Below are positions 18,130-58,064 of a stretch of DNA of 64,000 bases, piece by piece. The notes under the pieces were generated by a model. The model searched no databases. It was not told the origin of the DNA and saw only the letters and a list, made by a program, of their open reading frames with translations. The number at the start of each line of letters is the position of its first letter. Position 1 is the first letter of the stretch. The stretch lies in sequence record PQ351811. The stretch is one strand, 5' to 3'. The stretch comes from Shigella phage SSG23. The position numbers and the translations under genes were made by a program.

Positions 18130-18158
18130 TTGACAGGGGATCGCCGATCCCCTATACT
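18130..18158 (+). promoter_or_regulatory. sigma70-like early promoter (PeSL-like cassette)
   Basis: TTGACA then palindromic spacer GGGGATCGCCGATCCCC then TATACT; conserved leader. Confidence 0.7.
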
Positions 18159-27843: not shown

Positions 27844-27872
27844 TTGACGGGGATCGCGAGATCCCCTATACT
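27844..27872 (+). promoter_or_regulatory. sigma70-like early promoter (PeSL-like cassette)
   Basis: TTGACG then palindromic spacer GGGGATCGCGAGATCCCC then TATACT; conserved leader. Confidence 0.65.
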
Positions 27873-28560: not shown

Positions 28561-28570
28561 GGTGATTATT

Positions 28571-29098
28571 ATGGAATGGGAAGTTGGTAAAACTTACAAG
28601 ATTGAATGCGAAGCGTCGAAAGCCGAACTGACTAAATTTTCGTCGTCTATTAACAGATGTATTGTTGACTTGTTGGCTGGTCGCCCGTTTAGGGTAGAAG
28701 ACCTTGACGATGATGGTGATGTTAGAGAAATTACTATTATTGGTAGTAATTTCGACTCTATGACGTTAAAAGAATCCCCTATTGGTTGTTCTGGTGTGTG
28801 GTTTTGGTCGGGTGAGCGTCGTTTCTTTACCGAAGTTACTATTGAACCTAAGATTCCAGAATCGGAAGAAAAAGAAGAAGACCTAACTTTAGAACGTCTG
28901 GGTCTGCTTATGGAAGCCTACGACATTCAGTTGATCGATAAGACAGGATTGCACAATAGCATTGCTAAAATCACTACCCTAGAAGGTATTAAGAGCGTAC
29001 TGGATGGTATGCCTAGCCGGATCGGTGCTATCCGCGAATACAAGCAAACGCGCGACCGTATGATCCAATTAGAATCACGTATCAAAAATGAGAGATGA
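28571..29098 (+). CDS. paralog family A member 1
   Basis: MEWEVGKTYK...RPFRV..WFWSGERRFFTEV module plus helical C-module; GAGGTG SD. Confidence 0.6.
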   Translation: MEWEVGKTYKIECEASKAELTKFSSSINRCIVDLLAGRPFRVEDLDDDGDVREITIIGSNFDSMTLKESPIGCSGVWFWSGERRFFTEVTIEPKIPESEEKEEDLTLERLGLLMEAYDIQLIDKTGLHNSIAKITTLEGIKSVLDGMPSRIGAIREYKQTRDRMIQLESRIKNER

Positions 29099-29102
29099 TA
29101 AT

Positions 29103-29588
29103 ATGAAATGGGAAGAAGGTAAGACCTATAAGTTGGGTGGAGAATACGAAAAGAGTATTTTGCGTGATTGTTGGCGTTACGAACGAAGACCTAATATTGA
29201 TGGTATGTTTACATATCTCGATAAACCATTTATTGTTGCTACGGTAGACCGTTGGGGTAATGTACGTTCAATCTATAATCACGAAGGGGATTATATTAGT
29301 TCTATCGATGTTGGTGATAATATATGGTTTTCCGATGGCGACCGAGCGTGCTTCAAAGAAGTTTTATTGCCTGGTCATGAGCATGATCTAATTGATCTTC
29401 TCAAATTGGCGATGGATAATTATAAAATTCGCTTTGAATGCAAATCACATGCGGCTATCGGTGCTAATGCATTGCGTCATATCTCCAGTTTTGAAGAGTT
29501 GAAAGATTTTCTTGACAAAATGCCGGAAAGAGTGCAAGCTATACAGGAAGCAGAGAAAGCATTAAACGAACTTGATAAAATCGGTTAA
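29103..29588 (+). CDS. paralog family A member 2
   Basis: MKWEEGKTYK...KPFIV..WFSDGDRACFKEV; C-module FLDKMPERVQAIQEAE. Confidence 0.6.
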   Translation: MKWEEGKTYKLGGEYEKSILRDCWRYERRPNIDGMFTYLDKPFIVATVDRWGNVRSIYNHEGDYISSIDVGDNIWFSDGDRACFKEVLLPGHEHDLIDLLKLAMDNYKIRFECKSHAAIGANALRHISSFEELKDFLDKMPERVQAIQEAEKALNELDKIG

Positions 29589-29600
29589 GGGGAATATATT

Positions 29601-30425
29601 ATGAAATGGGAAATTGGTAAAACTTACACTTGGAAAGATGAAAAAGCTAAAACTGAGTTTATTACTAACGGTGAAGGTGTTCTTTCTCCACTTAACAGCG
29701 ATATTAGTGCAGCTATTGGTGACAAGCCATTTACCATCATCGAGATCGAGGGTAATGGTTGGATTGATGTAATAGAACTCGATGGGGTTGAGCATACGGC
29801 GAAAACTGCTACAGGAAAAGACATTTGGACTGCAACATATTTCTTTAGTCCATTCGATAGAAAATTCTTTCGTGAAGTTGAAGAAGTTCCCCAGAAATGG
29901 GAGGTTGGTAAAACTTATACTTGGAAAGATGCGAATGCTATGACCGACTTCTGTCATTATGCTGAAAACGTATCTAATCTTAATTATGTTATTGCACGAG
30001 CAATAAATTATAGACCTTTTACTGTTAAAAATGTTCGTCCATGTGGGCAAATTGATGTAATTGAAATTGATGGTAAAGACCATACTCTAATGAGTGCAAC
30101 CGAAGATAGCGACCATAAAGGAACTAGCTGGTTTATTGATTCTGATAGAAAATTCTTTCAAGAAGTAGAAGAATTGGAAGTTATAACCACTGATTCTAAG
30201 ATCGTTGGGCAATTGAAGCGTCTGTTTAGTAGTCGTTATGGCCTAACAATGGTTAAATTTGGCGAAGCAAATGAAGGTAAAACCTTTGAACGTTTCGATG
30301 ATTTCATCACAGCACTTGACAAGATGGACGAAATCATGCAAGATCGACAGAAGATTAAAGACCTTCAAGAAGACATTAACCGTCGTGAAGTTGAATTTTT
30401 GATTGGTAAAGAGCGAGGATGGTAA
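29601..30425 (+). CDS. paralog family A member 3 (internally duplicated N-module)
   Basis: Two copies of WE.GKTYTWKD...RPFT...IDVIE.DG...FDRKFF.EVEE (residues 1-95 and 97-190) plus C-module. Confidence 0.65.
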   Translation: MKWEIGKTYTWKDEKAKTEFITNGEGVLSPLNSDISAAIGDKPFTIIEIEGNGWIDVIELDGVEHTAKTATGKDIWTATYFFSPFDRKFFREVEEVPQKWEVGKTYTWKDANAMTDFCHYAENVSNLNYVIARAINYRPFTVKNVRPCGQIDVIEIDGKDHTLMSATEDSDHKGTSWFIDSDRKFFQEVEELEVITTDSKIVGQLKRLFSSRYGLTMVKFGEANEGKTFERFDDFITALDKMDEIMQDRQKIKDLQEDINRREVEFLIGKERGW

Positions 30426-31344: not shown

Positions 31345-31632
31345 ATGTTAGTACACAATGCAATCGCACACATGGTTTACTCTCGATTTGGACGCATGGA
31401 AGAAATCAGTATTACCGATGCAGATTTAGATCTGATGCAAGTAGAAGGTCAGACATATCTGAAAAATAACGGCGTGAATATCGGTAAAGCGCGTGTGCGT
31501 GAATTGTTGGTTGAATATATTCTCTCTGAATTTGGCATTAGTGCTTTCGGTGTGAAAGAGATTGCACCAAAGCGAGAAATCTCTGATAAGATGATCAAGA
31601 AATGCCAGAAAGCACGACGTAAGGGTTTCTAA
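31345..31632 (+). CDS. hypothetical protein
   Basis: Track ORF 31327 (TTG), ATG 31345 after GAGGAATATATTATG. Confidence 0.5.
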   Translation: MLVHNAIAHMVYSRFGRMEEISITDADLDLMQVEGQTYLKNNGVNIGKARVRELLVEYILSEFGISAFGVKEIAPKREISDKMIKKCQKARRKGF

Positions 31633-33101
31633 TGAAGATTGAAACATTAATCGCATTGCCAGCGGCGGGGAAAACTGATGCTATACTTTCCCACGTCCTA
31701 GAGACAAAAGAAAAAGCGGTTATTGCTTCGCCATCTCGTGTTTTAAGTGAACAATCTTACAATAAGTTTAAAAGAATGGGCGGTCGTGCTGTCTTGATTG
31801 ATAGCACAAGACTAAGAAGCCTTAAGACAGTGCAAGCGTCGATAATGCAATCAGTTAAAGACGGCGCTGATGTGATATTCATTACACACACCGCGTTATC
31901 TAATATGGAACGTTCAAAAATGTTTGGTGAATATGCTCTTTACATTGATGAAGTTCCTCAACTGGTCGAATTTAATGAATATCCGTTTAAGTCTAATCTT
32001 GAACTTATCACGAAGCATTGCGAACCAATCGCCGATGAATCAGAATGCCTACAGAACCTAGTTCTAAAAGATTCTGAGAAGTCCGCTATCAAAGAAAAGA
32101 TAGAAAGTGCGAAGGATGGTACTGATATGATCGATTCTTCGCTTAGAGGGCTTTATGAGGCGTTATTAGAGAAGAAAATCAACGTTATGGTAAAACATAA
32201 CGAAGGACACCGGAAGAATGGGTCGAAAATTGTTTTCTTGAACGATAACAAACACGGTACGTGGGGAGACTTTAAAAAGGTTACGATAGCATGTGCAAAT
32301 CTCTTTGATACATACAGCGGAAAGTATCTACGATACTATGCAAATTGCGATTTTGTTCCTAGTGCGCTAGAATCGCGGTTGTATTTTAAAGAATACAAAA
32401 ATACCGATAGAGTTAATATCGTGCTAATGACCGATTCTGAAAGATGGTCCCGTCATCAATCAGAAACAAATAATACCTTTGAACGTTTGGTTGATATGGT
32501 TAAAGATGAATGTGGTGACAATTTCATATATACCGTTAACCGCGACCGAGAGGCGTGCACAAATGGTATTGGTGAGCGGATACCATACGGATCATATGGC
32601 CTTAACTCTTACATTCATCATAAAAATGTTGCTGTGATGTTCAGCTTTAACCCTCAACGGTGGGAGATTGACATTTTAAAAGGATTGGCGCATAGTTGCG
32701 ATCTCCCGACAAATGAGTTTTTGAAAGCGCGTCATGTTTCTGACTATCTGGAACCAGCATTTCAATTATGTTTGCGTTGCAACCTTAGAGACAACGAGAG
32801 CAAAGAGAAGGTTAATTTATATGTTCCTGATTGGGCGTTAGTGGACTATCTAAAAACTTTTCTTCCTAACGCCAATGTTATAACAGACCGCATGATCTCT
32901 TTAGAATGTGGTGAGCGCAAAGGTCGAAAATCGTTTAAGAAGATGTTCGATTTTAACGAGAAGGAGAACGCCAGATTTAATGGATTCAAGCACCGCATGA
33001 AGAAAAAAGGAAAAACTCTTGATCCGTCTGATGGTGAATCGGTAGAGATGGTTAGAGTGTGGATAACTAAGCAAAGAAAGTATAATAGTAATGGGGAATA
33101 G
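31632..33101 (+). CDS. P-loop NTPase of unknown function (489 aa)
   Basis: Walker A LPAAGKTDA and Walker B-like LYIDEV; occupies T4 alpha-gt slot between nrdH-like and gene 55. Confidence 0.6.
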   Translation: MKIETLIALPAAGKTDAILSHVLETKEKAVIASPSRVLSEQSYNKFKRMGGRAVLIDSTRLRSLKTVQASIMQSVKDGADVIFITHTALSNMERSKMFGEYALYIDEVPQLVEFNEYPFKSNLELITKHCEPIADESECLQNLVLKDSEKSAIKEKIESAKDGTDMIDSSLRGLYEALLEKKINVMVKHNEGHRKNGSKIVFLNDNKHGTWGDFKKVTIACANLFDTYSGKYLRYYANCDFVPSALESRLYFKEYKNTDRVNIVLMTDSERWSRHQSETNNTFERLVDMVKDECGDNFIYTVNRDREACTNGIGERIPYGSYGLNSYIHHKNVAVMFSFNPQRWEIDILKGLAHSCDLPTNEFLKARHVSDYLEPAFQLCLRCNLRDNESKEKVNLYVPDWALVDYLKTFLPNANVITDRMISLECGERKGRKSFKKMFDFNEKENARFNGFKHRMKKKGKTLDPSDGESVEMVRVWITKQRKYNSNGE

Positions 33102-34181: not shown

Positions 34182-34192
34182 TGGCTTTATAA

Positions 34193-34228
34193 GGGAGACT
34201 CCGAAAGGGGTTTCCCTTTTTATTTTTC
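34193..34228 (+). terminator. intrinsic terminator
   Basis: GGGAGACTCC-GAAA-GGGGTTTCCC followed by TTTTTATTTTTC. Confidence 0.65.
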
Positions 34229-34271
34229 TATGATATAGTGAGAGCATCGAAAACGAAGAGAGGAAGAGACT

Positions 34272-35297
34272 ATGAAAATTTTGCTTTTGGGTGATCTGCA
34301 TACTGGTATCGGTGGCGATGATCCGTGGGTGCATGAGTATATTTTAGACACGATCAAGAAAGCGGTTGATTATTCTAAAGAAAATGGTATTAAGACATGG
34401 ATTCAAACAGGGGATTGGTTTGATTGCCGCAAGGCGATAACTCATGAAACCATGAAGTTTAACCGTACTAAGGTCATCCCATTACTGGAAGAGGCTGGAA
34501 TTACTTGTTATATCACGGTCGGGAATCATGATATGTTTAAACGAAACAAGATCCAGCCTAACGCACCGCGTGAAGTGTTAAGCCAGTATGATTGCATTAA
34601 GGTCATCGATAAGCCGGAAACAGTTACCTTTGATGGTGTATCGTTTGATCTGTTCCCGTGGTTTTGTGATGATAATAAATCAGAGGTTTTAGAGTTTATT
34701 CAAAATTCATTCAGCGAATATTGTGTAGGCCATTGGGAATTGTCTGGTTACTATTTCTATAAAGGTCTAAAATCCGAAGGTTATAGCGCGGACTTCCTCA
34801 AGAAATACCGTGAAGTGTTTTCCGGTCACTTTCATACTATCAGTGATGGCGGTAACGTAACGTATATTGGCACACCATACACACTAACGGCGGGTGACGA
34901 AAACGATCCGCGTGGTTTTTGGGTATTCGATACCGATACACACAAAAAAGAGTTTATCCAGAATGATAAAACATATCATGTGCGTATCACTTACCCGTCA
35001 GATGATAAAATCGACGTAGAACGCTATAAGGGGCTTAGTGTGCGTCTTATCGCAACGGTCGCTGATAATGGGTTAACTAAGTTAGAAAGCGCGTTAGAAG
35101 CCGTTGTGCATAAGCTAAAAGTGGTCCATAAGCTGGAGAGTAGCGCATCACAGGAAACAGGTGTTATTGAAGTTAAAAGCACTATTCAGATGGTCTATGA
35201 ATATCTGGAAGAACAAAACCTAGAACCGGAAGAACTTGCGGCAGTTAAGCGCATCTCTGATGAACTTTTAGCCGAAGTAAATAGCGCAAAAAGTTAG
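34272..35297 (+). CDS. 47: recombination endonuclease subunit gp47 (Mre11/SbcD-like)
   Basis: Phosphoesterase motifs LLLGDLHTG, GDWFD, GNHD, GHWE, GHFH; close to remembered T4 gp47. Confidence 0.9.
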   Translation: MKILLLGDLHTGIGGDDPWVHEYILDTIKKAVDYSKENGIKTWIQTGDWFDCRKAITHETMKFNRTKVIPLLEEAGITCYITVGNHDMFKRNKIQPNAPREVLSQYDCIKVIDKPETVTFDGVSFDLFPWFCDDNKSEVLEFIQNSFSEYCVGHWELSGYYFYKGLKSEGYSADFLKKYREVFSGHFHTISDGGNVTYIGTPYTLTAGDENDPRGFWVFDTDTHKKEFIQNDKTYHVRITYPSDDKIDVERYKGLSVRLIATVADNGLTKLESALEAVVHKLKVVHKLESSASQETGVIEVKSTIQMVYEYLEEQNLEPEELAAVKRISDELLAEVNSAKS

Positions 35298-35326
35298 TTG
35301 ACGCGGGGAGAAATCCCCGTTATACT
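35298..35326 (+). promoter_or_regulatory. sigma70-like early promoter
   Basis: TTGACG then spacer with CGGGGA-GAAA-TCCCCG hairpin then TATACT. Confidence 0.6.
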
Positions 35327-35350
35327 CTCTAAAAATTGATGGAGGTTATT

Positions 35351-35602
35351 ATGATTACTGATGCACTGAAAGAATTTAACGCAAGTTTAGAGAAGTTCAC
35401 TAAGATCCGAGTTTTTGAGGTTGTTCGGAATGGTCAACATATGCTATCCTTCCGTTCTAACTACGGGATGTGGACACATGACGAAATCCCGTTTGATCGT
35501 GATAATATCACTAGACTGGAACTAGCAACCATTGTATCCCGTAAGATTGCTGATATTACCCAGAATGTTATTGCGCGTGGGTCTATGGAGTCTGTACGAT
35601 GA
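35351..35602 (+). CDS. hypothetical protein
   Basis: Track ORF 35336..35602, ATG 35351 after GGAGGTT SD. Confidence 0.5.
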   Translation: MITDALKEFNASLEKFTKIRVFEVVRNGQHMLSFRSNYGMWTHDEIPFDRDNITRLELATIVSRKIADITQNVIARGSMESVR

Positions 35603-35916
35603 AAACACTTGCACAAAAAGTAATGGAATTTAATGCAGCGTTGCCTATGTTCGCTCGACGTAAGGGGATCTCCGTTGATGTATGGTATTCCAAAGAGCAT
35701 GAAGAAGTTCGGATGATGCTCGAAAAGCGACTCACTGACACTACCGTTAAGTGTAAGATTCGTTCTATTCCTCGCGAGGAAATAGAATTTGATGAAAGCT
35801 ATTACTTTACGCTGCGTCATGTGCTGAAACAAGCAATGGATGAACTTTTAGAAGACCTGAAACAATATGAGATTGAAGGGGGAACATATTATGAATATGA
35901 CTATGGTCGAGGCTGA
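35599..35916 (+). CDS. hypothetical protein
   Basis: Track ORF; ATGA overlap. Confidence 0.5.
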   Translation: MKTLAQKVMEFNAALPMFARRKGISVDVWYSKEHEEVRMMLEKRLTDTTVKCKIRSIPREEIEFDESYYFTLRHVLKQAMDELLEDLKQYEIEGGTYYEYDYGRG

Positions 35917-36463
35917 TTCTGATTCGCTGGTAATGGAACATTTTATTGAATTGGTACACACATACACAATAAAACAATCATATCACAAGAATCCGATCTA
36001 TGGCTATCTGAAAGCGCGTATTGCTAAAATGTGGGGTCAGCCAGTGGTTAAGATGTGGTATGATGACGGTTATCGTCGTTACCTTAAAGTTATTCATCCA
36101 CAGGATTTGATGGTAACTATGGACATTGGCGACTTTGTAAAAGACAAAGTAGAATCCATTATTAAGAGTGTGGTTGGTGAATATAATCCGATTGTATATG
36201 GTGCTTTCGTCCAGTGGATACAATCCAGCAAGTATTATTTTCCGAATACTCCATTGACGCTAACAGGTTGGATCTCTGTCATGCATAGCGGTGTATTCCT
36301 GGAAGCGTCAGAGACAATGTACAAGGGATATATTCTCCCGCATCGACTGGTGAAATGTGATCACCGCTTGACTGTAGGTGAATTTCGCGATATTCTGGAA
36401 CAGCAAGCGGAAGACCTGCAAGGTGAAATTGAAGAATTTTTAGAGGAACATAAACTAAAATGA
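35891..36463 (+). CDS. hypothetical protein
   Basis: Track ORF 35867..36463, ATG 35891 after AGGGGG SD. Confidence 0.5.
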   Translation: MNMTMVEADSDSLVMEHFIELVHTYTIKQSYHKNPIYGYLKARIAKMWGQPVVKMWYDDGYRRYLKVIHPQDLMVTMDIGDFVKDKVESIIKSVVGEYNPIVYGAFVQWIQSSKYYFPNTPLTLTGWISVMHSGVFLEASETMYKGYILPHRLVKCDHRLTVGEFRDILEQQAEDLQGEIEEFLEEHKLK

Positions 36464-36723
36464 TTCTATCGATGACCTACCTTAGACATAGGGTTATAGA
36501 AGGTCTTCGCGAATATCTGGCATTGAATAAAGGGATTTACATTGATCCCTTTATGACATATGATCCGGCGACACTGGATTATGTGGTCATGTTGCCAGAT
36601 CGCAGAGACACACTAGTTAAAGTGAAGGCGGCAAGTGTTTACAACATTGATGAAGATGTGTTAGCATTTAATATTATGGAATGTGTGATCGCGGAGTGGA
36701 TTAATGGCAAAGTTAAATTTTAA
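36460..36723 (+). CDS. hypothetical protein
   Basis: Track ORF; ATGA overlap. Confidence 0.5.
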   Translation: MILSMTYLRHRVIEGLREYLALNKGIYIDPFMTYDPATLDYVVMLPDRRDTLVKVKAASVYNIDEDVLAFNIMECVIAEWINGKVKF

Positions 36724-38386
36724 AACCTTGCGCTATCAGAATATAATGAGCGTAGGTGCTGAACCTGTAGAGATTCAGCTAGACGGATTCAAAAAGACAC
36801 TAATCACTGGTGTTAACGGTGCTGGTAAATCAACAATGATCGAGGCGCTTTGCTTTGTATTGTTTGGTAAACCGTTTCGTAGTATCAAGAAAGGCCAATT
36901 GATTAACAGCGTCAACAAAAAGAAACTGTTAGTCGAAGTCTGGTTTGAACTGGACGGGAAAGAATTTTATATTAAACGTGGTCAAAAGCCGGAAGTATTC
37001 GAAGTGCATCGCGACGGTCAAAAGATCGACGAGAGCGCGAGCACCAAAGACTTTCAGGAATATTTTGAAGGTATCATAGGCATGAACCTAGCCAGCTTTA
37101 AGCAGATTGTTGTTTTAGGCACTGCTGGTTATGTTCCGTTTATGAGTCTTCCGGCAGCGGGTCGCCGTAAGCTGGTCGAGGATTTGCTTGATATTGCCAC
37201 ATTAGGAGAAATGGACAAGCTGAATAAAGCGTATGTGCGCGAGATTACCCAGAATATCCAAATGCAGGAAATGAAAGCTAATCACGTTCAGCAACAAATC
37301 AACACTCATAAAAAGTACATAGAAGACGCTAGCAAGGCGAGTGCCGAGAATCTCCAGCGTTTACAGAATATGTATGATAAAGAGGTAGAATCGGCTAAAG
37401 CATTTAAAGCCGAAGAAACGCGCTTGACCGATGAGCTATTGGCTGTTGTTATGCCGGAAGATCCCAGCGCGGCATTGGCTAAAATTAATACGGCTATCGC
37501 ACAGATTGGTGCACAGATCCAGAACTTTGACCGTGTTATCCATATGCACGAGAAAGGCGGGGTTTGTCCTACGTGTACACAACCGATCATTCAGGGTAAT
37601 GATCATGCTGTACGCGAACAAAAAGCACAAGCAGAACATAAGCTGTCTCTGATTGACGAGAAACGCGTAGAATACGCAGAGAAAGCCAATTCTTTCCAGA
37701 CAGCACAAACTAAGGTCTTGGAAATTAAACGCGCTATAGAGTCACAGAGAGCGAATTTAACGGCATCTGTAGGTCGGGCTAAACAGATCCAGAAAGCAAT
37801 TCAGGAATTACAAAAAGAAAGGGTTGACAATTCCGAAGAACTTGCTAAACTGGAGCACGAACTGGTAGAGATTACCAATGAAAAATCAAAACTAGTTCTT
37901 GAAAAATATCATCGTGGATTTGTAACAGAAATGTTGAAGGATTCCGGTGTTAAGGCGTCTATCGTCAAGAAATATATTCCATATTTCAATGATCGAATTG
38001 CTTATTATCTGGAGATCATGGAAGCGGATTATATCTTTACGCTAGATGAAGAGTTTAACGAAACAATCAAATCACGGGGGCGTGAATCGTTTTCGTATAC
38101 ATCATTCAGTCAAGGCGAAAAAGCACGTATTGATCTTGCGATGCTCTTTACATGGCGTGATGTTGCTGGTAAAGTATCTGGTACTAATATCTCTTTGTTG
38201 GTACTCGATGAAATTTATGATGGGGCTACTGACGTTCAAGGCGTAAAAGCACTTGATTCCATCATTGACAAGTTAGATGATAACGTGTATATTATCAGCC
38301 ATCGTGACCATAACCCTGATGATTTTAGCCGTCATCTCAAGATGGTTAAACGTGGGCGATTCACTGAAATGAATGTTAACATTTGA
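36704..38386 (+). CDS. 46: recombination endonuclease subunit gp46 (Rad50/SbcC-like ATPase)
   Basis: Walker A GVNGAGKST, coiled-coil with CPTC zinc hook, signature FSQGEKARIDLA, Walker B LVLDE. Confidence 0.92.
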   Translation: MAKLNFKTLRYQNIMSVGAEPVEIQLDGFKKTLITGVNGAGKSTMIEALCFVLFGKPFRSIKKGQLINSVNKKKLLVEVWFELDGKEFYIKRGQKPEVFEVHRDGQKIDESASTKDFQEYFEGIIGMNLASFKQIVVLGTAGYVPFMSLPAAGRRKLVEDLLDIATLGEMDKLNKAYVREITQNIQMQEMKANHVQQQINTHKKYIEDASKASAENLQRLQNMYDKEVESAKAFKAEETRLTDELLAVVMPEDPSAALAKINTAIAQIGAQIQNFDRVIHMHEKGGVCPTCTQPIIQGNDHAVREQKAQAEHKLSLIDEKRVEYAEKANSFQTAQTKVLEIKRAIESQRANLTASVGRAKQIQKAIQELQKERVDNSEELAKLEHELVEITNEKSKLVLEKYHRGFVTEMLKDSGVKASIVKKYIPYFNDRIAYYLEIMEADYIFTLDEEFNETIKSRGRESFSYTSFSQGEKARIDLAMLFTWRDVAGKVSGTNISLLVLDEIYDGATDVQGVKALDSIIDKLDDNVYIISHRDHNPDDFSRHLKMVKRGRFTEMNVNI

Positions 38387-39015: not shown

Positions 39016-39393
39016 ATGAAACGTATGAGCCTAAAAGAACAATTAATGTTTATCGAACTTGACTATAAACTATTCCCGATACCGTTTGATTATGTCAAAC
39101 GTGGCAGTGTGGTTAATTTTGATATTGGAACCGATAGCAACATTTGGCATTTTGTTGTTGATGAGTTTGTTGATAATGTGATTCGTCGTAAACTTGCTTT
39201 TGAACCTTGCGGTGATCTGGTATATCTCGAAGGCAAGAAGACCGCAAAGAACCCTGTTACTGTCTATGCTCTGCAACAATACTTGACAGCATATATTGGA
39301 TTCAGATATACTCATACTATTGATGAGAAAGCTGCGGAAAACTTCCAAAACAAAATGCTCAAGATTCGTAACGAACACGAAGTAAACCCGTAA
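39016..39393 (+). CDS. hypothetical protein
   Basis: Track ORF 38995..39393, ATG 39016 after GGAAGTGATAGAATG. Confidence 0.5.
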   Translation: MKRMSLKEQLMFIELDYKLFPIPFDYVKRGSVVNFDIGTDSNIWHFVVDEFVDNVIRRKLAFEPCGDLVYLEGKKTAKNPVTVYALQQYLTAYIGFRYTHTIDEKAAENFQNKMLKIRNEHEVNP

Positions 39394-40110: not shown

Positions 40111-40123
40111 TATAATGTTTGTG

Positions 40124-57503: not shown

Positions 57504-57803
57504 ATGAGCAAAAAGAATAACATGATGATGAGCATGGCAAAGTTCATGGAAGCAGACCTGATCAAAAATACAGTACAGCATGAACGTCAGCGAGAAGCCG
57601 CAGTGATTGCAGAACAAGGTTTTCAGGTTATCCGCAATCCACCTAAAGACACGGTTAAATCGAAATACAGAGACGATTTGAAAGACCATGAAGTACGGGA
57701 ACTGGTTAATGATCTGCGTGACATTGCTATCAAATATCATGGTTATCAGTGCTTAAGAGAACTGATTGCAGAGCGAGTAATGGATGCACTGAAAAAAGAT
57801 TAA
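57504..57803 (+). CDS. hypothetical protein
   Basis: Track ORF 57330..57803 runs through promoter; ATG 57504 after GAGGATTTAATAATG. Confidence 0.5.
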   Translation: MSKKNNMMMSMAKFMEADLIKNTVQHERQREAAVIAEQGFQVIRNPPKDTVKSKYRDDLKDHEVRELVNDLRDIAIKYHGYQCLRELIAERVMDALKKD

Positions 57804-57810
57804 AAAGTTG

Positions 57811-57839
57811 TTGACGCTGGATCGGGGATATAGCATAAT
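57811..57839 (+). promoter_or_regulatory. sigma70-like early promoter (PeSL-like cassette)
   Basis: TTGACG-17-CATAAT; inverted repeat GGGGATAT/ATATCCCC straddling -10; leader CATCGAAAAC. Confidence 0.65.
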
Positions 57840-57860
57840 ATCCCCATCGAAAACAAAAGG

Positions 57861-58064
57861 TTGACTTATATGAAACCGTTTAAGAATGAAGAAACTCAAA
57901 AATTTTGTGAAAAAATTGCAGAAATCTACTTGACAGGAGAGAAGGAAAAGGCTAATATTATGTTCAAAGAGGCAGTTTCCTTGATGAAAGTAGCACGCTG
58001 GGAACTGATTGCAATGCAAGACCAAATTCGTTATCTAGTAACAAAGGAGAATCAAAATGCGTAA
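57861..58064 (+). CDS. hypothetical early protein
   Basis: Track ORF after promoter. Confidence 0.5.
   Translation: MTYMKPFKNEETQKFCEKIAEIYLTGEKEKANIMFKEAVSLMKVARWELIAMQDQIRYLVTKENQNA

Follow-up and report, generated by a model that had tools for sequence, protein, structure and literature searches.

The four small open reading frames (ORFs) between genes 47 and 46 of this phage are probably an orphan-gene cassette, headed by a promoter/stem-loop element of the PeSL class and lodged in a slot of Krischvirus whose content varies between T4-like lineages. They would be early-expressed accessory genes, and their promoter would also feed gene 46. The window, a stretch of 64,000 nt, is a segment of a Krischvirus (RB49-like, Straboviridae) genome. 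Over the 4.1 kb from gene 47 to gene 46 it is 100% identical to the Shigella phage SFHK24 (SFHK24 position minus 35341 gives the window position) and 90–97% identical to 57 other Krischvirus records.

The slot is bordered upstream by gene 47 (34272–35297), which encodes the SbcD/Mre11-like nuclease subunit of 341 aa (phrog_100, E=1.9e-124; Pfam Metallophos), and downstream by gene 46 (36704–38386) for the SbcC/Rad50-like ATPase subunit of 560 aa (phrog_77, E=3.9e-179; Pfam AAA_23/SMC_N). Between them, on the same plus strand, lie the PeSL cassette (35283–35350) and ORFs A to D. ORF A (35351–35602; 83 aa, RB49p038, phrog_15867) is the most variable gene in the block. It is followed by ORF B (35599–35916; 105 aa, RB49p037, phrog_15856), the two-domain ORF C (35891–36463; 190 aa, RB49p036, phrog_16328) and ORF D (36460–36723; 87 aa, RB49p035, phrog_14972). 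The A/B and C/D junctions are ATGA stop-start overlaps, ORFs B and C overlap by 26 nt, and the final 20 nt of ORF D form the start of gene 46. Shine-Dalgarno sequences precede the ORF starts, and the GC content of the block (0.37–0.43) is the same as that of its flanks. The same four ORFs are annotated as hypothetical proteins in the records of SFHK24, RB49 (RB49p035-038) and GEC-3S. The four ORF starts and the flanking genes had been placed correctly in the earlier note, as had the overlap of the last ORF with gene 46.

The cassette at the head of the block consists of an A-rich stretch containing the stop codon of gp47, a -35 hexamer, a spacer with a hairpin, a -10 hexamer, a short leader and a Shine-Dalgarno sequence. 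The AT-rich sequence GCAAAAAGTTAG, with the gp47 stop codon TAG, directly adjoins the -35 hexamer TTGACG (35298–35303), which is separated by 17 nt from the -10 hexamer TATACT (35321–35326). A GGAGG Shine-Dalgarno sequence (35341–35345) lies 5 nt upstream of the ORF A ATG at 35351. The promoter agrees with the consensus at 10 of 12 positions, and the pattern TTGAC-N18-TATAMT occurs ten times in the window, always on the plus strand, against 0.16 copies expected; the TTGACG promoter that the earlier note had set before the block is thus borne out. In GenBank, the GEC-3S record has a promoter annotated at this very site.

The spacer itself folds into a hairpin, CGGGGA-GAAA-TCCCCG (35304–35319), that is present in both the MFE and the centroid folds and is followed by UUAUACUCUCU, which is no clean U-tract. 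This hairpin is absent from the earlier note. Two further copies of the pattern, at 18130 and 27844, have the same GGGG...CCCC spacer hairpin and align with the element of the block. Across the repeated promoter cassettes of the window, the A-rich upstream part, -35, spacer and -10 match, and the leader of the block's element is shorter and different.

Metagenomic relatives of the locus preserve the element in altered form. In one of intermediate divergence (L012) a compensatory T-A replaces the closing C-G pair of the hairpin. L007 has a different but intact stem (GGGGGA/TCCCCC), and its promoter, TTGACA-17-TATAAT, fits the consensus at all 12 positions; in L009 the hexamers read TTGACA...TATACT. 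Rfam and tRNA scans of the window gave no matches, and no late promoter (TATAAATA) was found within or close to the block.

On these sequence features, the head element belongs to the PeSL class, which Arbiol, Comeau, Kutateladze, Adamia and Krisch defined in RB49 and phi1 in 2010 (PMC2839356). PeSLs are strong sigma-70 early promoters combined with a stem-loop that acted as a terminator or attenuator in reporter assays; both promoter and terminator activity were demonstrated only for PeSL193/192, 206/205 and 211/210 (PMC2839356). They fall into five subclasses by the placement of the hairpin, of which a position between -35 and -10 is a common one (PMC2839356). Most lie upstream of orphan ORFs, and a few lie within the conserved replication module, adjoining genes of unknown function (PMC2839356).

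By analogy with the published PeSLs, host RNA polymerase would start about 7 nt after position 35326, immediately upon infection. The hairpin lies upstream of this predicted start and would therefore be transcribed only in RNA reading through from gene 47, which it may attenuate or terminate. On the same analogy, the new transcript would carry ORFs A to D and then gene 46. Between 35327 and 36704 no terminator-like site was found on the plus strand; a weak one lies inside gene 46 (36841–36857), and a strong hairpin follows only at 40123, beyond gene 45. Gene 46 is thus probably co-transcribed with the block, and the overlaps between stops and starts point to translational coupling from one gene to the next. 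RB49-type phages have neither MotA nor middle promoters, and promoters of novel ORFs sometimes drive downstream early genes of T4-like phages (Nolan et al. 2006, PMC1524935). Since MotA-dependent middle-mode transcription is missing from these phages, the cassette promoter is probably also a main source of gene 46 mRNA.

All four ORFs are intact in 58 of 58 Krischvirus records, where each occurs at a single place, always between genes 47 and 46. A tblastn search of 50,697 phage records with the four proteins returned no match outside these 58 genomes. Searches of 5.8 billion and 1.8 billion proteins found only close relatives and three divergent metagenomic loci. The ORF D search of the 5.8 billion proteins gave three close clusters only, the ORF B profile search gave four clusters, and an exhaustive HMMER search of 1.8 billion representatives with ORF C gave two close and two distant clusters (40% and 46% identity). 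A scan of IMG/VR with the ORF B profile found only two near-identical Krischvirus contigs. One further match to ORF C, an 836-aa clostridial-toxin-like repeat protein (P0008, E=9.5e-5), was rejected as a repeat and composition artefact caused by its KYYF repeats. Within the databases searched, the four ORFs are therefore confined to Krischvirus and a small number of metagenomic relatives.

Every distant or intermediate relative is a metagenomic contig, and the gene context is unchanged. Those of intermediate divergence (L012/13/14) have a four-ORF layout identical to that of the window. In L009 gp47 is followed by a PeSL, a 94-aa ORF, an ORF B homologue, a split ORF C and an ORF D homologue, the last being 26–30% identical to ORF D of the window, depending on the alignment. 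L007 runs from gp47 through a PeSL, an 84-aa ORF and homologues of ORFs B and C to a 53-nt spacer and gene 46; ORF D is absent here, with gp46 and gp47 intact. L007 and L009 have related ORFs in the first position. In the 53-nt spacer of L007 lie a TTGACA hexamer and an ATCCCC/GGGGAT inverted repeat. As a second PeSL this spacer was rejected, since it fails the promoter consensus scan; it is possibly a PeSL remnant.

The gene 47–46 junction is occupied differently across the T4-like phages. In Jiaodavirus and Tulanevirus it is empty, and 47 and 46 directly overlap. One ORF is found in RB43 (054w, phrog_7762), in Vibrio phage D527 (a weak Lar-like match) and in cyanophage S-RIM8 (DUF3110), whereas Tequatrovirus and Kanagawavirus have two (Y03C/46.2 and DUF5487/46.1), as does Acinetobacter phage Acj9 (a 79-aa ORF and a phosphoesterase). 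In several T4-like lineages a single small ORF is tightly overlapped between 47 and 46. Among the records inspected, only Krischvirus combines four ORFs with an intergenic gap and a promoter. Kinship of ORFs A to D with the slot ORFs of T4 (46.1/46.2), RB43 (054w), Acj9, D527, S-RIM8 and CIP9 was considered and discarded, as no similarity was found; the Pfam models of Y03C and DUF5487 match T4-like and Kanagawavirus proteins at E=1e-10 to 1e-49 and none of ORFs A to D. The junction is a recurrent insertion slot across T4-like phages that holds from zero to four unrelated small ORFs. The pattern that the earlier note had named as speaking against its proposal, homologous ORFs with known and unrelated functions in the slot of most T4-like phages, was not found, because the slot ORFs elsewhere are non-homologous and likewise uncharacterised.

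That the block is a mobile module, inserted, excised or exchanged through recombination between PeSLs as in the mini-circles of Arbiol et al., with its location between 47 and 46 accidental, is the best of the alternatives, though an unlikely one. Recombination at PeSLs flanking orphan ORFs, with mini-circles as products, is documented (PMC2839356), and the loss of ORF D in L007, beside a possible PeSL remnant, would fit such events. The mosaic alleles of ORF A among Krischvirus isolates would fit them too, as would the sharp dips in nucleotide identity within ORF A and the N-terminal half of ORF C. However, only a single PeSL flanks the block in the window and the gene 46 side has none, the block sits at the same site in every one of the 58 genomes and at no other location in any genome searched, its GC content is that of its flanks, and the L007 spacer fails the promoter scan. 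Any insertion must thus be ancient, and we see no sign of current mobility of the block as a whole.

Pairwise dN/dS values were calculated by the Nei-Gojobori method between the window and five related loci. They are 0.21–0.27 for ORF A, 0.10–0.19 for ORF B, 0.15–0.24 for ORF C and 0.10–0.18 for ORF D, in comparison with 0.04–0.09 for gp47 and 0.02–0.03 for gp46. Judged by this substitution pattern, all four ORFs truly encode proteins and are under purifying selection. Between the window and L007, gp47 and gp46 are each 88% identical, whereas ORF B retains 51% and ORF C 38% identity, and the first-position ORF of L007 has no significant similarity to ORF A (E=0.16). The homologues of 38–51% identity keep length and frame. 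The comparisons show that the genes of the block evolve several-fold faster than the nuclease genes that flank them.

The rate is uneven along the block. ORF A is 78% identical to its RB49 counterpart, and its profile resolves into 17 clusters at 90% identity, with high allelic diversity and mosaic blocks among Krischvirus isolates. Nucleotide identity within the genus dips to about 80% in ORF A and the N-terminal half of ORF C; it is 94–100% from the C-terminal half of ORF C through ORF D to the 5' part of gene 46. ORF D is 98% identical to its RB49 counterpart and 94–98% identical within the genus, on a par with core genes.

These rates bear on a second alternative, that the four proteins serve gp46/gp47 as accessory or regulatory subunits peculiar to this lineage, for example as adaptors that target or restrain the nuclease. 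This reading would explain why the genes are embedded between those of both subunits and translationally linked to gene 46. In its favour, the block has the same place in each of the 58 Krischvirus genomes and in the three divergent metagenomic loci, ORF D is strongly conserved in the genus with a 20-nt overlap into gene 46, ORF B and the C-terminal half of ORF C are predicted to fold like small dimeric chaperones that bind proteins (see below), and several other T4-like lineages also hold a tightly overlapped small ORF in the slot. Against it, the block does not co-occur with gp46/47 across the T4-like phages: in eight other lineages the slot is empty, as in Jiaodavirus and Tulanevirus, or holds ORFs from unrelated families such as Y03C, DUF5487, DUF3110 and phrog_7762. 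Towards L007 the block proteins are reduced to 38–51% identity or are unrecognisable while gp46/47 stay at 88%, and ORF D has been lost altogether. Moreover, no sequence or fold match to known Mre11/Rad50 partners was found. We therefore regard a role as nuclease subunits as improbable, rather more so than mobility of the block.

The preferred reading, a PeSL-headed cassette of accessory genes, has to accommodate some of the same observations. Retention of the block in 58 of 58 genomes and the 98% conservation of ORF D, which equals that of core genes, speak against it and imply that the genes are not freely dispensable in Krischvirus; the fixed position beside gene 46 and the overlap with it are compatible with a link to the nuclease. 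The want of a clean U-tract behind the hairpin likewise counts against the proposed attenuator. Its least certain part concerns what the products do. They may be small soluble alpha/beta proteins, early and dispensable accessory factors that would bind host or phage proteins in the style of host take-over or counter-defence, and they would not be constitutive subunits of the gp46/gp47 nuclease. Early accessory, host-directed or counter-defence-type binders are favoured over nuclease subunits because of the restriction to one genus, the fast mosaic evolution and the loss of ORF D. The replacement or extreme divergence of ORF A, and a slot that elsewhere contains unrelated ORFs or none, point the same way. 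A literature search on the RB49 protein accessions, on Krischvirus anti-defence and on T4 46.1/46.2 found nothing relevant.

The synteny and homology checks proposed in the earlier note thus divide its interpretation. Its suggestion of an inserted accessory module that uses the cassette promoter gains from the PeSL-class head element, the genus-restricted orphan ORFs and the lineage-variable slot. Its other suggestion, accessory factors of the nuclease complex, loses ground: co-occurrence does not extend beyond Krischvirus and close metagenomic relatives, the block evolves faster, and ORF D is absent in L007.

Sequence searches with ORFs A to D against Pfam, NCBIfam, PADLOC and the PDB gave nothing below threshold, and their PHROG matches are only to genus-specific families without known function. 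We modelled ORFs B and C with AlphaFold2, in the case of ORF B from shallow alignments. The ORF B model is confident overall (mean pLDDT 83) and predicts an alpha-beta3-alpha sandwich, with a helix at residues 4–13, a short helix at 17–21, strands at 25–31, 36–44 and 50–58 and a long helix at 68–94; the C-terminal motif YDYGRG is invariant. For ORF C the mean pLDDT is 58, with residues 1–91 below 50 and residues 96–190 at 72–93. Its N-terminal half (1–95) is variable and poorly predicted, and its C-terminal half (96–190) is again predicted to be an alpha-beta3-alpha sandwich (helix 100–112, strands 123–129, 134–139 and 152–155, helix 162–186). The boundary between the confident and unconfident parts coincides with the point at which the gene is split in L009, where ORF C is represented by separate genes of 86/90 aa and 99 aa, with a GGAGGA Shine-Dalgarno sequence and an ATG at the boundary. 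ORF C is a fusion of two domains, which one relative encodes as separate genes.

In fold searches, the predicted structures of ORF B and of the C-terminal half of ORF C match the same small dimeric protein-binding chaperone folds, those of class I type III secretion chaperones and YbjN-like proteins (ExsC, 3kxy; SycN, 1xkp; AvrPphF ORF1, 1s28). The phage modules comprise only alpha-beta3-alpha, whereas the class I type III chaperone/YbjN fold is alpha-beta3-alpha-beta2-alpha; identities are 5–14% and Z scores below 8, and the phage side lacks a secretion-system context. LptE and a ribosome hibernation factor, which are unrelated two-layer sandwiches, score almost equally well, and we therefore take the similarity as a resemblance at the level of the fold and not as membership of the chaperone family. 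A search of BFVD with the ORF B fold returned uncharacterised proteins only, at E of 4e-3 or higher.

In a bolder reading, ORFs A and B, both halves of ORF C and ORF D descend from five ancient duplicates of one alpha-beta3-alpha secretion-chaperone-like module, by now too divergent for their sequences to show it, and form rapidly diversifying adaptors or decoys that modulate the adjacent Mre11/Rad50-type nuclease early in infection or shield it from a host factor by which it is sensed or inhibited. If true, the phage would possess its own equivalent of an Nbs1-like third component, or the block would represent a new anti-defence family tied to the recombination nuclease. Neither hhalign profile-profile comparison nor blastp detected significant paralogy among the four ORF families, and a tandem repeat of one domain is thus demoted to speculation of very low probability. 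Finally, the ORFs might be open frames that arose by chance, or artefacts of annotation, within a long spacer of intergenic or regulatory character. This could be argued from the lack of Pfam, NCBIfam and PDB matches and from four PHROG families that are all without known function, but the reading is effectively refuted by dN/dS values of 0.10–0.27 in all four, and also faces intact frames in 58 of 58 genomes, conserved length and frame in homologues of 38–51% identity, Shine-Dalgarno sequences ahead of the starts and the confident model of ORF B.

The structural side of this picture is already public. The four ORFs appear as hypothetical genes in RB49 and every Krischvirus genome since, the PeSL class was described and tested in 2010 (PMC2839356), and the general rule that a core early gene can be served by the promoter of orphan ORFs upstream of it dates from 2006 (PMC1524935). 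The modest additions made here are the recurrence of the slot, its fast-evolving occupants in Krischvirus, the fusion and splitting of ORF C, and the chaperone-like fold common to two modules. The block offers reasonable, if not outstanding, candidates for screens of early accessory or counter-defence genes of phages.

When comparing the block with other known gene arrangements, the closest in position are T4 46.2 (Y03C, PF25721) and 46.1 (DUF5487, PF17589), small early ORFs that occupy the same slot and, like ORFs A to D, are tightly tiled with its flanking genes 47 and 46. On the sequence level there is no relationship between the two sets by Pfam, PHROG or blastp. Whereas Krischvirus has four slot ORFs behind a promoter, T4-type phages have two, with no promoter annotated after gene 47 in the records inspected, going by their annotations only.

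The head element closely follows the PeSLs of RB49 and phi1, which belong to the same genus. Like these, it has an A-rich upstream part, a sigma-70 -35/-10 pair whose spacer holds a G-tract/C-tract hairpin, and it is sited between the stop codon of an upstream gene and the Shine-Dalgarno sequence and start of an orphan ORF. Its leader after -10 is short, without the conserved ACACCCATCGAAACGAAA sequence that most PeSLs of the window carry there. The cassettes of PeSL plus ORFan in RB49 and phi1 were treated by Arbiol et al. in 2010 and by Comeau et al. in 2014 (PMC2839356; PMC4122927). In contrast to cassettes with a single ORFan, the PeSL of the block heads four genes and a core gene; unlike other such cassettes, the block has no second flanking PeSL and no presence/absence polymorphism in the genus. 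The 2006 description of novel-ORF operons by Nolan et al. is generic and does not discuss the 47–46 block (PMC1524935). The block nevertheless resembles these operons in being co-oriented with early genes, in having its own early promoter and in its genome-like GC content, and in them too a conserved early gene further downstream is sometimes transcribed from the ORF promoter, as gene 46 probably is here.

ORF B (35599-35916) and ORF C (35891-36463) overlap. At window positions 35876-35916 the same nucleotides encode the tail of ORF B, supply the Shine-Dalgarno sequence of ORF C and specify the first codons of the latter (MNMTM/MTMTM). ORF B ends in an invariant C-terminal motif, Y-[ED]-YDYGRG, which persists even where overall identity is only 46-51%, and this extreme conservation may be due to dual coding with the start of ORF C. 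In L009, a metagenomic relative from ENA, ORF C is present as two genes of 86/90 aa and 99 aa. At their junction (contig positions 1080-1130) the two share 11 nt, and the second ATG is preceded by a GGAGGA Shine-Dalgarno sequence. This split is known from one contig and could reflect a sequencing frameshift.

Nucleotide conservation is unusually high across window positions 36360-37160, a stretch that runs from the C-terminal half of ORF C through ORF D into the 5' end of gene 46. Whereas dS for gene 46 ranges from 0.13 to 0.35, the values for ORF D are only 0.04-0.16. Promoter-like sites are located within ORF D at 36536 and 36638. The high conservation may stem from a recombination sweep in the recent past, or gene 46 expression may impose constraint at the nucleotide level.

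Downstream, a 125-aa ORF (39016-39393) lies between rpbA and gene 45. Its product shares only 66% identity with those of RB49 and GEC-3S, whereas the flanking rpbA and gp45 are 98-100% identical to their counterparts in the same two phages. The ORF is a second hypervariable small gene within the replication module. Similarly, the 489-aa ORF 5' of gene 55 (31632-33101) is only 69% identical to its copy in L012, a relative of intermediate divergence, whereas gp55 reaches 97%. This ORF, whose L012 copy gives a weak Pfam match to DEAD-helicase, is a further fast-evolving gene adjoining a core gene.

The window contains approximately ten PeSL-type promoter/stem-loop cassettes, all on the + strand (900-28000 and 57790-57870), which cluster in the first 28 kb, the hyperplastic region. 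Repeat families D1-D3 and D5 correspond to their conserved 50-77-nt cores. At 28566-29950, several neighbouring genes are marked by repeat families D7 and D17. The motif ATGAAATGGGAAGxxGGTAAAACTTA, common to the starts of these genes, points to a small family of tandem paralogues located downstream of the PeSL at 27844.

Upstream of gene 47 (34185-34271), a strong terminator hairpin (34191-34218) is followed by a T-run, and the gene 47 leader, CATCGAAAACGAAGAGAGGAAGAGACT-ATG, resembles the conserved PeSL leader. The HNH homing-endonuclease gene RB49p040 is absent from the window. In RB49, it begins at exactly the same leader and ATG (L002 1260-1904), and gene 47 is pushed downstream by it.
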